Shown here one piece after another: positions 21,001 to 24,000 of a stretch of DNA of 64,000 nucleotides (position 1 is its first letter; each line of letters begins with the position of its first letter). Source of the DNA: an uncultured Methylomirabilota bacterium. GTDB lineage: Bacteria; Methylomirabilota; Methylomirabilia; Methylomirabilales; 2-02-FULL-66-22. Where the stretch lies: assembly GCA_963845565.1 (NCBI GenBank), contig CAWJSJ010000001.1, forward strand, positions 352,001-416,000, in the 5' to 3' direction. Position numbers: made by a program.

Positions 21001-24000
21001 CCCCAGTCGCTCCACGACATCCCCGGGCACCCCCTCCATCGCCGCCAGCGTCGGCGCGACGCTCTTGACCGTCCATCGGTCGATGCCCGCATAGGTGAAG
21101 CCGTTGAACGCCAGCGCCAGCGCGATGGCGGGGACGGCGATGCCGAGCGGTGTGCCGCGACCGGCCGAGTCCGAGGTTTCCCAGTTTCGTCCCCGGCGGA
21201 TGACGTTCAGTAGATTGACGAGCACATAGGACGTGACCGCAAACGCCGGGAAACCGAGAAACCCGAGCGGGGGCATCTCGAACCACTTCAGGTCTTCGAG
21301 GTGGGGGACAGTGTAGAGCCACTTCGTGTAGGCCCAGAAGTTCCAGAACTCCCACAGTCCTCCGCAGACAAAACCCGCCAGCAACAACCGCAGCAAGGGC
21401 CGAGGGTCTCCACGCTCAAGCTGCCGGGCGAGCGAGACGGTCCGGGGGCTCGCCCAGTAACACAGCGGCTCCCCCAGGAAGATCGCGAAACCCCAAATCA
21501 GCGGGAAGGCGACCCTGGGCCAGACGAGTGGAGCGATGAGCATCCCGAGGCCGAGTATTACCGATCCGGCCAGGCCGACAGAGGCGATCCGCCGGGGGCG
21601 CATCTTGATCCCGTTGGCGACTCCGTACGCGTCCAGAAGTAGATAGGTTTCGAAAAGCGCCGGAAGGACGGTTGCGTATGAGATAAAGTTAAATAACAAG
21701 GCGAGGGGCTGGTCGGCAGGTGTATTGACGTAGAACCAGTTCTGGAGTCGAAAGTTCAGCAACTCGAACAGGTTCCATAGGGGGACGGACCAGAAGGCCA
21801 GAAACCAGAACTCCCACGGGCGGCTCCGCAAGAGCGATGCCCCGCACCGTCTCCACGCGCAGGCGTCGATGAGGAGGATGTACGACCACCAAGCGATGCC
21901 GTAAAAGAACATCGGGATCGGGGCGACGTCGAGGAAAAGGCCCGCCTTCCCGGCGAGGAGACTCGCCATCCCGACCCACCCATACCATGGGAGAGTGCGC
22001 TCGTCCGATCCGCGGGAACCGCCCGGCACGTTTTCCGCCCTCCTTTCGTGCCATTCTACCTCCGGTGCACGCGATGGCAAGTCTTTCCCCGTTGTGCCGC
22101 CGCTTGCCTTTACCGGATAGCTCGGGTATTCTTTGGCGGTCATGCATCCAAACGCCCGACCGACCGATCAAGCCTCTTGCGGCGTCTCCTCGACAACGAG
22201 ACGTGCCGTGCGGCGCATTCTTCTTGGCGGCCTCCTCGCCATTCTGTGGTCTGGTGTGGCTTGTGCCGGCGAGGACACGCAGCTCGAGGCGAGTATCCTC
22301 CGGGTCAAGCCGGCGGTGGTGCTGATCAGCAGCGAGGTGGGGGCCGAGGTGGCGATCAGTTGCGGGATTGGCCCCATTCACCAGGTGCGGCCCGACCCCC
22401 TCTACGAGACAGGGAGCGGCTTCATCCTGCATCCGGATGGTTTCATCGCGACCAACGGCCACGTCGTCGAGCGCTTTTATGAGATGAACGAGCAGCGACT
22501 CGCCAAGGAGTTCCTCGAAAAAGCCGCGGTGGACGCGTGCGGGCCGGCGCTGGCCATGGTGCCCGAGGGGGCGCGAAAGGAGCGGCTCCGCGCGATCGTG
22601 GACGACCCGGCGAACCGGGGCAAGGTCCGTTTGGTGAAGAAGCTCCACGTGCATCTGTCCACCGGAAAGATCTACGGCGCCGAGGTCAAGGCGTACAGTC
22701 CGGCCATCAAGCCGGAGGGGATCACGGCGGGCAAGAGCGCCTCGGAGGGCGGGAAGCCGGAGGCGGAGCGATCCGGAAAGGACATCGCCATCCTGAAGAT
22801 CGCCGAACGCGATCTGCCGACGCTGCGGCTCGCCCCGAGCAGCGGCATGCTGAAACTGGGCGAGCAGATCTTCGTGATCGGTTATCCGGGCGTGGTCTTG
22901 AATCACGATTTCCTCAGCCGGAAGTCGCAACTCGAGGCATCGGTGACGGTGGGGCGGGTGTCGGGTTTCAAGATCGACGTCAACGATCGCAAGGTGATCC
23001 AGACCGATGCCGCCATCACCTGGGGTAACAGCGGCGGGCCGGCCTTCAATTTCCAGGGGGACGTCATCGGCGTGGCCACGTTCATCTCCACCACCCTGGA
23101 GGGCGATCAGGCCGTGCAGGGGTTCAATTTCCTCGTTCCGGGGGACGCGGTGCGCGACTTCTGCGGCATGATCGGCCTGACGCCGACCTCGGATACCCGG
23201 TTTATGAAGGAATGGGAACAGGGGGTCGCCGCCTATTTCCGCGGCGAGTACCAGCGGAGCCTCGGACATCTGAATACCGCCGAGAAGATCATGCCTGGTT
23301 TTCCGGATATTCAACGGCTGCGCGCCTATGTGCAGATGCGCGTGGACAAGCGCCCCCGCTTCATGCAGCGCGGGAAGACCGTCGGCCTGGGGGTCGGCGC
23401 CGTCCTGGTGGGCGTCCTGGTGATCGTGGGCGTGCGACGATATGCCACCGCACGGGCGAACGGCGGTCCCGCGGTCGTTCAACGCATCGGCGCGGACGAG
23501 ATTCGCCGGCGTCTGGAGACGGGAACGGGCGTCGCCCTGGTGGATGCCCGGCACGGGGCGGCGTTCGACATGTCGCCGGTCCAGGCGGCAGGCGCGGTGC
23601 ACTTTGACATCGATCACCCAGACGTTGAGGCGCTCCGGGTGCACGTGAAACCCGACGGCGAGGTCGTCGCCTATTGCACCTGACCCGACGAGGCCACCAG
23701 CGCCCGTGTGGCGCTGCAGTTGATGCGGGCGGGTTTCCATCGGGTCTCGGTGGTGCGCGGTGGGCTCCCGGCGCTGATGGAAGAAGGGGTGACCGTGGCG
23801 CCAAAGGACACCCCGACGGCCGCCGTGTGACTGCCGGCTGCCTGGAGGAATCTGACCAGACATGAGCGACAACGGTACCCTCGCGCGTCGACAAGCGGGA
23901 TCTCGGGCCGGGAAGGGCCGGTGGTGCGGTTCGCCGTGGGCCCGGTGGGTGTGCGCGGCCTGGCTGGCGAGCGCCGCTGTCGGTCTCATGGCCTGGGCAG

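Follow-up and report, generated by a model that had tools for sequence, protein, structure and literature searches.

Selenoproteins with a rhodanese-like domain and a C-x-U motif have been described before. PMC13188914 lists the rhodanese-like selenoprotein 'form 3', CxU (NF041203, rhodanese_LYCAU), and the same CxU family appears as 'COG0607 form 2, CxU' in PMC9312934. The known form is a small stand-alone protein with a model length of 126. A further selenoprotein, TsoB (NF045694, UxxxxU), is given in a table row of PMC13188914 as rhodanese/DsbD fusion-like. On the protease side, the predicted bacterial serine-protease and serine-protease-like selenoproteins have selenocysteine (Sec) instead of a Cys within a trypsin domain (COG5640), or have it in a CxxU motif. 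LapD and LapG represent a different kind of system, in which cytoplasmic c-di-GMP exerts inside-out control over a periplasmic protease.

The gene described here lies in a window of 64,000 nucleotides from an uncultured Methylomirabilota bacterium and has features of several of these systems. It shares with the NF041203 family the rhodanese fold, the Y-C-x-U-P-x-E..S-A motif, and a UGA that falls in or at the active-site loop with a hairpin behind it at the same register, but here the domain forms the tail of a membrane protease of 540–565 aa. The NF041203 match noted in the survey's finding was reproduced (8.4e-17, 61 bits) and misses the 115-bit cut-off of this equivalog model, which is reached nowhere in the genome. 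The protease fold, catalytic motifs, and putative export signal are those of HtrA, DegP, DegS, and DegQ (S1C); however, the protein has no PDZ domain and instead carries a C-terminal transmembrane (TM) helix and a cytoplasmic domain. The NCBIfam cut-offs for HtrA-type proteases are all missed by far, for example 84.8 against 416 for TIGR02037. Unlike the COG5640 and CxxU families, the protease domain is without Sec, which is found in the fused rhodanese. TsoB is similar in that a Sec-containing rhodanese is fused to a membrane protein, yet by its tabulated description it has another fusion partner and another Sec motif. The likeness to LapD/LapG may be one of mechanism, not family. A cytoplasmic signal would govern periplasmic proteolysis in both, and a PilZ-bearing paralogue suggests a similar logic, but the LapD/LapG pair consists of separate proteins with different folds, whereas sensor and protease would here share one chain. 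No paper describing a protease-rhodanese selenoprotein fusion was found, and deep-Sep (PMC12013277) mentions neither rhodanese nor protease. The CxU rhodanese selenoprotein is already known, and fusion to a protease is a new architecture for it.

Gene structure and domain layout

The locus is very probably a single gene for a two-sided membrane selenoprotein, judging from sequence, with a periplasmic HtrA-type protease and a cytoplasmic Sec-rhodanese. Its features are as follows.

22133..23830, + strand: whole gene with the UGA at 23681-23683 taken as Sec; true stop TGA at 23828-23830; aligned over its full length with 35 relatives
22208..22267, + strand: N-terminal segment resembling a signal peptide, RRILLGGLLAILWSGVACA and then GE; hydropathy peaks over residues 29-47, and the model has a helix at 18-39
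22412..23074, + strand: HtrA-type (S1C) serine protease domain, from Pfam Trypsin_2, invariant alignment columns, and Foldseek
23198..23350, + strand: three-helix linker from protease to membrane helix; AlphaFold2 helices 353-366, 370-383, and 388-403, block pLDDT about 90
23378..23434, + strand: transmembrane helix TVGLGVGAVLVGVLVIVGV; Kyte-Doolittle mean 2.56 over 19 residues, long helix 406-439 in the model
23492..23776, + strand: rhodanese-like domain, complete only with the UGA read through; Pfam PF00581, PDB profile matches, model pLDDT about 80-90
23675..23677, + strand: TGC codon of Cys515, the Cys of C-x-U; YC in 67 of 68 distinct sequences
23681..23683, + strand: UGA predicted to be read as Sec, residue 517 from the TTG; at the same position in relatives, with Cys there in some
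23698..23716, + strand: SECIS-like hairpin CAGCGCC-CGUGU-GGCGCUG, within the coding of ..TSARVAL..

The sequence and the open reading frame (ORF) lists give a plus-strand ORF at 22133..23683, 516 aa counted from the TTG at 22133, that stops at the TGA at 23681-23683. The survey's finding held that this called stop is not the end of the gene. Past it the frame stays open for 48 codons, up to the TGA at 23828-23830, and the peptide around the first TGA reads ..VVAYC-T-U-PDEATSARVA... Read-through gives a product of 565 aa from the TTG or 540 aa from the called start, GTG 22208, the same lengths as previously stated. The start codon is uncertain, as already proposed, with ATG 22142 being the third candidate. 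The opposite strand carries an ORF of 791 aa, and given the high G+C content an open frame past the stop is little evidence alone.

Searches with Pfam, an AlphaFold model, and Foldseek form the basis of the domain layout and agree with the earlier description of a hydrophobic N-terminus, an HtrA-like protease, a TM segment, and a rhodanese. Orthologues have typical signal peptides at the N-terminus. In the read-through protein, Pfam Trypsin_2 matches residues 94-314 (1e-24, 88 bits), and the His/Asp/Ser triad falls within TNGHVV, GKDIAILK, and GNSGGP. Across the 36 aligned sequences H107 and D214 never vary, and at least 90% of them keep S297; C74 and C133, numbered from ATG 22142, are likewise invariant. 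Foldseek matches the protease model to HtrA1, DegP, MucD, and DegQ with E-values of 1e-15 to 1e-16 and a TM score of 0.78 on the target. The read-through sequence returned no Pfam match to PDZ. At the C-terminus, the Rhodanese match (PF00581) covers residues 454-548 with 5.1e-7 and 30.5 bits, above the cut-off of 22.2, and thereby spans the UGA at residue 517. A profile of the tail matches solved rhodaneses (6mxv, 8.5e-18), while phmmer with the tail alone found no match among PDB sequences.

From the domain searches and the model, the inferred order is a signal peptide, a periplasmic HtrA-like protease lacking PDZ, a helical linker, a single TM helix, and then the rhodanese, on the cytoplasmic side. 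The orientation belongs to this prediction, and the positive-inside rule does not decide it, since the TM helix is flanked by charges of +4 and +3.

Conservation of the UGA and its hairpin

In the model, the C-x-U follows the end of strand 507-511 and precedes helix 518-529. The UGA had been placed in the active-site loop, which holds in that the C-x-U lies in or at the loop, but the canonical catalytic residue differs between alignments. Sec517 falls on the catalytic Cys when the PDB profile is aligned with 6mxv, and also in an hhalign comparison with one rhodanese of this genome. Conversely, hhalign to another rhodanese of the genome and the secondary structure of the model place Cys515 at that position. 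As profile, hhalign, and model point different ways, the alignments disagree on the assignment. The acidic loop (PDE) of the tail is presumably unlike that of classical sulfurtransferases.

In the genus, 14 loci have the TGA at this C-x-U site and two have TGT or TGC instead; in another family of the class, 20 of 20 sampled '1 TGA' loci have it there. Relatives with the TGA range from 35 to 92% identity and are not independent of one another. Cys is found at the Sec position in L011 (TGT), L029 (TGC), L079, and L081, and other relatives have Ser, Thr, or even Glu. In the tree, each of the two Cys forms from the genus sits singly within Sec clades. On this sequence sampling, the protease-rhodanese selenoprotein is common in the phylum, being predicted for the majority of species sampled from one family of the class and for part of the genus. 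The codons past the UGA are evidently under purifying selection; the median dN/dS over 91 pairs is 0.154 for 42 codons. The extension is matched over its full length in the closest relative, G009, at 92% overall identity. The gene and several orthologues stop at the second TGA, past which no sequence is conserved.

The survey had counted how the 120 best homologue clusters end, and the same figures were obtained exactly: 86 end at YC[DTH] (76 D, 9 T, 1 H), 11 continue as YCxC-PxE, and 23 are otherwise. The truncation that it described in public homologues is thus real and affects nearly all public gene calls. With 86 of these 120 nearest clusters cut off at the UGA, databases show plain 'trypsin-like peptidases' and the selenium site is missed.

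The stem-loop reported 15 nt past the UGA was located at 23698-23716. It has 5-7 bp, its stem begins at the 15th nucleotide after the UGA, and the apical loop is CGUGU or CGGGU. The bSECISearch spacing rule expects a stem-loop shortly 3' of the UGA with a G in the apical loop, and both its position and its loop agree with this. Of 43 distinct Sec sequences, 42 preserve all five core base pairs, compared with 2 of 25 among the non-Sec sequences. Codons of the hairpin show a synonymous divergence of 0.17, those of the remaining extension 0.54. Covariation within the family is thin, as three of seven pairs are invariant and only two have changes on both sides. A more distant Sec-rhodanese encoded elsewhere in this genome (C4:52321-52641, minus strand) is followed at an identical register by a 7-bp hairpin, in which, by our reading, four pairs appear changed on both sides. 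The folding energy was not significant against shuffled sequences (z -0.63 and -0.95) and thermodynamics was therefore set aside as evidence. An Rfam scan of 23640-23800 with E up to 10 returned chance matches only and no Rfam family. As neither the open frame nor the folding energy is informative, the case for Sec is built on homology and conservation. The hairpin also sits inside the conserved S-A-R-V-A coding stretch, so that constraints on RNA and protein overlap.

Of the Sec machinery listed by the survey, tRNA-Sec (76 bits, anticodon tca), SelA (578 bits), and SelD (343 bits, with its own in-frame TGA) were recovered. The selB gene is present next to tRNA-Sec but, in this assembly, is split over three frames by three 1-base insertions that break the G domain; the stretch of selB concerned is C4:5630-5940. 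It is intact in five relatives, including G009. Contigs of near-identical DNA from four public runs in four studies have one base fewer at each insertion site, and for this reason the three insertions are probably assembly errors.

Proposed role and alternative readings

The UGA at 23681-23683 would be decoded as Sec by SelB and tRNA-Sec under the direction of the hairpin 15 nt downstream, as the comparative evidence suggests. The signal peptide would then export the HtrA-type serine protease to the periplasm, where the three-helix linker and single TM helix would tether it, with the C-terminal rhodanese and its Cys515-x-Sec517 pair remaining in the cytoplasm. In cells lacking selenium or Sec decoding, translation would end at the UGA and leave the protease with half a rhodanese domain.

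For the likeliest role, proposed tentatively from sequence comparison, the C-x-U pair would serve as a redox or sulfane-sulfur switch and the tail as an input domain of the periplasmic protease. The pair could cycle between selenol/thiol and selenenylsulfide or persulfide states, and the cytoplasmic tail could in this way tune the protease, for example via its oligomeric state. The C-x-S relatives carry a cNMP_binding domain past the rhodanese in four of four tested, and the genome's own paralogue has PilZ there, as would suit a tail that senses in the cytoplasm. The proposed sensor function is supported because the paralogues hold these second-messenger sensors in the same tail. Together with the Sec form, they suggest a testable route for cytoplasmic control of periplasmic proteolysis.

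A different function for the tail, and a rather unlikely one, is that of an autonomous membrane-tethered enzyme, either a sulfur/selenium transferase or a small reductase, which might feed a thiol-redox membrane partner and have no part in regulating the protease. Selenocysteine is usually a catalytic redox residue, stand-alone C-x-U rhodanese selenoproteins are also encoded in the same genomes, and TlpA-like, CcdA, and DsbA-like genes lie nearby in the genus, all of which would suit such an enzyme. However, this neighbourhood is not kept outside the genus, and the replacement of Sec by Ser or Thr, together with the added PilZ and cNMP-binding domains, fits an input module better. Other readings concern the decoding of the UGA itself. 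Read-through may not, or not only, insert Sec, with a near-cognate tRNA supplying Cys or Trp, or with short and full forms made on purpose depending on selenium. Natural orthologues do tolerate Cys, and the Ser, Thr, and Glu of other relatives point the same way. This reading is nonetheless improbable, as the UGA is linked to a hairpin at fixed spacing that is lost in most non-UGA relatives, a linkage predicted for SelB-dependent decoding, and as tRNA-Sec, SelA, and SelD are present, along with a selB that is frameshifted as deposited.

It is very improbable that the UGA is a real stop and the 48 codons an untranslated rhodanese remnant, left for example by the loss of Sec decoding in this organism. 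The three insertions that break the G domain of selB would fit such a loss, and the hairpin's folding energy is unexceptional. Against this, dN/dS is 0.15 past the UGA and the hairpin has been retained, while G009 keeps the full-length extension alongside an intact selB. The four public runs lacking a base at all three selB sites point to assembly errors, and the genome's own SelD depends on Sec decoding. A sequencing error, or an alternative code with TGA as an ordinary amino acid, has next to no probability. Indel errors do exist in the assembly, but the same TGA is found in 34 further loci of other genomes, and the fact that a second TGA terminates this gene and several orthologues, with nothing conserved past it, runs counter to recoding.

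If the selenoprotein reading with a sensor tail is extended to the paralogues, an undescribed Methylomirabilota family of one-chain inside-out proteases can be envisaged, with interchangeable cytoplasmic inputs acting across one TM helix. Sec would be ancestral in the tail and repeatedly lost to Cys, Ser, or Thr. The inputs would then comprise the Sec C-x-U rhodanese, sensing redox state or persulfide by means of selenium, a C-x-S rhodanese with a cNMP-binding domain, and a rhodanese with PilZ. This wider proposal is speculative and on balance unlikely.

The gene neighbourhood was considered as a functional clue and rejected. HtrA-PDZ, DUF192, TlpA-like, and CcdA genes are its neighbours at 10 of 12 loci of the genus, where a DsbA-like gene is also nearby, and at none of seven loci of the other family. 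As conservation is confined to the genus, the context lends no functional support. The adjoining gene at 23862-25037 carries a PDZ domain.

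The protease-rhodanese gene and its reading frame

The gene at 22133..23830 joins an HtrA-type protease, a transmembrane (TM) helix and a rhodanese domain with a predicted Cys515-x-Sec517 (C-x-U) centre. According to the survey's finding, its UGA is a selenocysteine (Sec) codon, a 48-codon extension completes the rhodanese, and most database homologues are truncated at this point. All of its figures, including coordinates, lengths and the 61-bit score discussed below, were obtained again.

22133 (TTG) to TGA 23681-23683, plus strand: apparent open reading frame (ORF); other starts are ATG 22142 and GTG 22208
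Residues 94-314: Trypsin_2 domain (Pfam, 1e-24)
Residues 454-548: rhodanese domain, which includes the UGA at residue 517 (Pfam, 30.5 bits against a cut-off of 22.2)

Beyond TGA 23681-23683, 48 in-frame codons lead to a second TGA at 23828-23830, and the read-through product has 565 residues from the TTG or 540 from the called GTG. No model of NCBIfam release 20 reaches its cut-off with this protein. HtrA/DegP-type models match with scores far under their cut-offs, and NF041203, 'rhodanese_LYCAU, rhodanese-related (seleno)protein', scores 61 bits, under its cut-off of 115. A recount of the 120 best database clusters returned the same split as before: 86 end at YC[DTH], 11 continue with Cys, and the other 23 belong to a paralogue that has a basic tail but no rhodanese. 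Relatives (NC10, Methylomirabilis MAGs) are labelled 'trypsin-like peptidase domain-containing protein' or 'S1-C serine protease'. In its longest form, a divergent upstream ORF (DUF4332, membrane protein; 20620-22143, minus strand) would start at 22143 and overlap the fusion gene, if that too is taken at its longest. Both genes probably start further in, the fusion gene for example at GTG 22208, and an intergenic region would then separate them.

The domain itself is known. The review PMC13188914 describes five rhodanese selenoprotein forms, including 'form 3, NF041203, CxU', and does not use the words protease, HtrA or trypsin; PMC9312934 also has this CxU form. Among the selenoproteins predicted in the GOS study (PMC2398784) are a 'trypsin-like serine protease' and 'MucD', but unlike in the fusion gene their Sec is part of the trypsin domain itself or of a CxxU motif. 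Full-text literature searches found no description of a protease-rhodanese fusion and nothing joining rhodanese, HtrA and selenocysteine. The fusion protein may be among the selenoproteins of Deng et al. 2026, cited in PMC13188914 (reference 66) for a Methylomirabilota MAG with 63 selenoproteins. The gene is best described as a real Sec-recoding case of ordinary appearance, its known selenoprotein domain being set in an undescribed fusion architecture; its identity is well supported, while selenium content, topology and function are predicted.

Comparative evidence for a selenocysteine codon

An open frame past the stop is little evidence in DNA this G+C-rich, as the opposite strand of the gene holds a 791-aa ORF. 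The case for a predicted Sec codon is instead comparative. A genus-level survey, combining a genome search of 41 relatives with direct reading of loci, found a TGA at the same site in 14 genus loci including that of G000 (the genome under study), in the context ..AYC[DT]-U-PDE.. and at 53-92% overall identity. Cys replaces Sec in two genus orthologues, L011 (TGT) and L029 (TGC). Searching 251 genomes across the phylum gave matches at E <= 1e-60 in 160, among them 145 of 159 genomes from a second family within the class. By hand count of the 150 places listed, about 79 of those that extend past query residue 545 have a TGA in frame and about 31 lack one. The TGA lies at AYC[TS]-U in all 20 fetched TGA places, and the 16 fetched places without a stop have Ser (10), Thr (2), Cys (2), Glu (1) or Ala (1) at the Sec position. 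Four unpublished genomes (G028, G075, G216, G217) are counted in the 41-relative and 251-genome tallies only; sequence-level claims rest on the others. Among the 14 genus sequences, median dN/dS is 0.154 over the 42 codons past the UGA (91 pairs) and 0.238 over the 45 codons ahead of it (82 pairs). A second fusion-gene copy in the relative G003 (L030, G003:C227) aligns only from query residue 89, with its N-terminal translation apparently out of frame, and may carry a frameshift or 5' defect.

The UGA is followed by a hairpin, and a more distant Sec-rhodanese in G000 has one in the same register.

23698-23716, plus strand: hairpin CAGCGCC-CGUGU-GGCGCUG, first base the 15th nt past the UGA, encoded inside ..T-S-A-R-V-A-L..
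G000:C4:52321-52641, minus strand: stand-alone small rhodanese, ..FYCGU.., with in-frame TGA (NF041203 51 bits, under cut-off) and 7-bp hairpin GGCUGCC-GGGCU-GGCAGCC

The fusion-gene hairpin does not stand out from its shuffles in folding energy (z -0.95 and -0.63), and its region has no Rfam family match. Across 25 aligned Sec sequences 94% of hairpin cells are paired, with little variation: three pairs are invariant and two have changes on both sides. A stronger test kept the register fixed and compared distinct sequences of Sec relatives with those of non-Sec ones. All five core pairs are present in 42 of 43 Sec sequences versus 2 of 25 non-Sec sequences, counts that overstate independence because the sequences are akin to one another and that leave out three rows, all with the hairpin (the Sec forms L021 fusion and L043, and the Cys form L011). 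The two non-Sec exceptions are L075 and L072 (G171:C84), which has GAA (Glu) for TGA and is otherwise near the Sec form L053 (G174:C172); both of these close orthologues keep the hairpin, and the GAA reflects a recent loss of Sec or else an error of assembly. The six hairpin codons show a synonymous divergence of 0.17, against 0.54 elsewhere in the extension. In our own comparison, four of the seven pairs of the C4 hairpin are changed on both sides relative to that of the fusion gene. At L021 (G008:C170), about 0.7 kb downstream of the fusion gene, a further, separate gene for a C-x-U rhodanese selenoprotein carries a TGA and a hairpin of its own.

The Sec machinery reported for G000 was found again as to tRNA-Sec (76 bits, anticodon tca), SelA (578 bits) and SelD (343 bits, with its own in-frame UGA). 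SelB was also found, but its gene, which adjoins tRNA-Sec, is spread over three frames in the assembly.

G000:C4:5502-7391 (outside the window): selB, with three single-base insertions at L099 positions about 333-335, 415-422 and 632-636

The insertions fall inside 300 nt when compared with the intact selB of G009 (93% identical DNA). A strain-specific defect is possible; however, contigs of four public runs from four studies each have one base fewer at all three sites, and selB is intact in five of five relatives tested, so the frameshifts are most likely errors of the G000 assembly.

Possible loss of selenocysteine, and the C-x-U centre

A quick maximum-likelihood tree covers 61 full-length forms (34 U, 19 S, 4 C, 2 T, 1 E, 1 A), with partial loci and stand-alone rhodaneses excluded. 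Sec and non-Sec states must switch at least 10 times on it, and well-supported branches force 8 of these switches; both genus Cys forms sit singly within Sec clades. This would fit an old Sec state that was repeatedly lost, with the direction of change depending on a midpoint root.

Tyr-Cys is kept in 67 of the 68 distinct sequences of the hairpin comparison, with U, C, S, T, E or A at the variable +2 position. Which of Cys515 and Sec517 is the canonical residue differs between alignments with canonical rhodaneses. A PDB profile search aligned Sec with the catalytic Cys of both 6mxv domains, as did hhalign with that of one G000 rhodanese, whereas with another Cys515 fell on the catalytic Cys and U-P became an insertion. 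The predicted strand (507-511), loop (512-517) and helix (518-529) agree with Cys515 as the catalytic position. Under either alignment only one residue separates Cys515 from Sec517, and a selenenylsulfide between them would be possible.

Topology, neighbours and possible function

In an alignment of 36 proteins, numbered from ATG 22142, the HtrA motifs are TNGHVV, DxAxLK and GNSGGP. His107 and Asp214 are invariant, as are C74 and C133, and Ser297 is present in at least 90%. An AlphaFold2 model (mean pLDDT 77.7, pTM 0.61) has the following parts.

Residues 18-39: N-terminal helix
Residues about 59-343: protease
Residues 353-403: three helices
Residues 406-439: long helix
Residues 447-554: rhodanese fold

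Foldseek matched the protease part to HtrA1, DegP, MucD and DegQ (E 1e-15 to 1e-16, TM 0.78 on target). Hydropathy marks two hydrophobic segments, residues 29-47 and 416-434 (mean 2.56), and the N-termini of orthologues are typical signal peptides. The charges flanking the TM helix do not decide its orientation. Relatives and a paralogue carry further domains after the rhodanese: cNMP_binding in four of four tested C-x-S relatives of another family, and PilZ in a G000 paralogue.

G000:C2:139633-141246 (L088:133-2235): 700-aa paralogue, 39% identical, same layout, C-G-S for C-x-U
G000:C2:814614-815903, C5:699242-700372 and C2:1693492-1694415: three further protease paralogues, 51-66% identity, without rhodanese
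23862-27742 and 17679-18557: envelope thiol-redox and quality-control cluster of HtrA-PDZ, DUF192, TlpA-like redoxin, CcdA (DsbD_TM) and CcmH-like TPR, with DsbA-like upstream

PilZ and cNMP_binding are cytoplasmic sensor domains, and their position after the rhodanese makes a cytoplasmic tail and a periplasmic protease most likely. The neighbourhood is no functional evidence: the HtrA-PDZ gene is present in 10 of 12 genus loci and conserved beside the fusion gene within the genus only, and none of the G000 neighbours occurs within 4 kb at any of seven second-family loci. The best functional pointer is the swapping of tail domains, which favours, tentatively, a C-x-U tail that acts as a redox or sulfane-sulfur switch tuning the protease from the cytoplasm. 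The main rival, in which the tethered tail works by itself as a reductase or as a transferase of sulfur or selenium, seems less likely. The closest rhodanese-less G000 paralogue has a basic Arg/Pro-rich tail past the TM helix, like 23 of the 120 database clusters.
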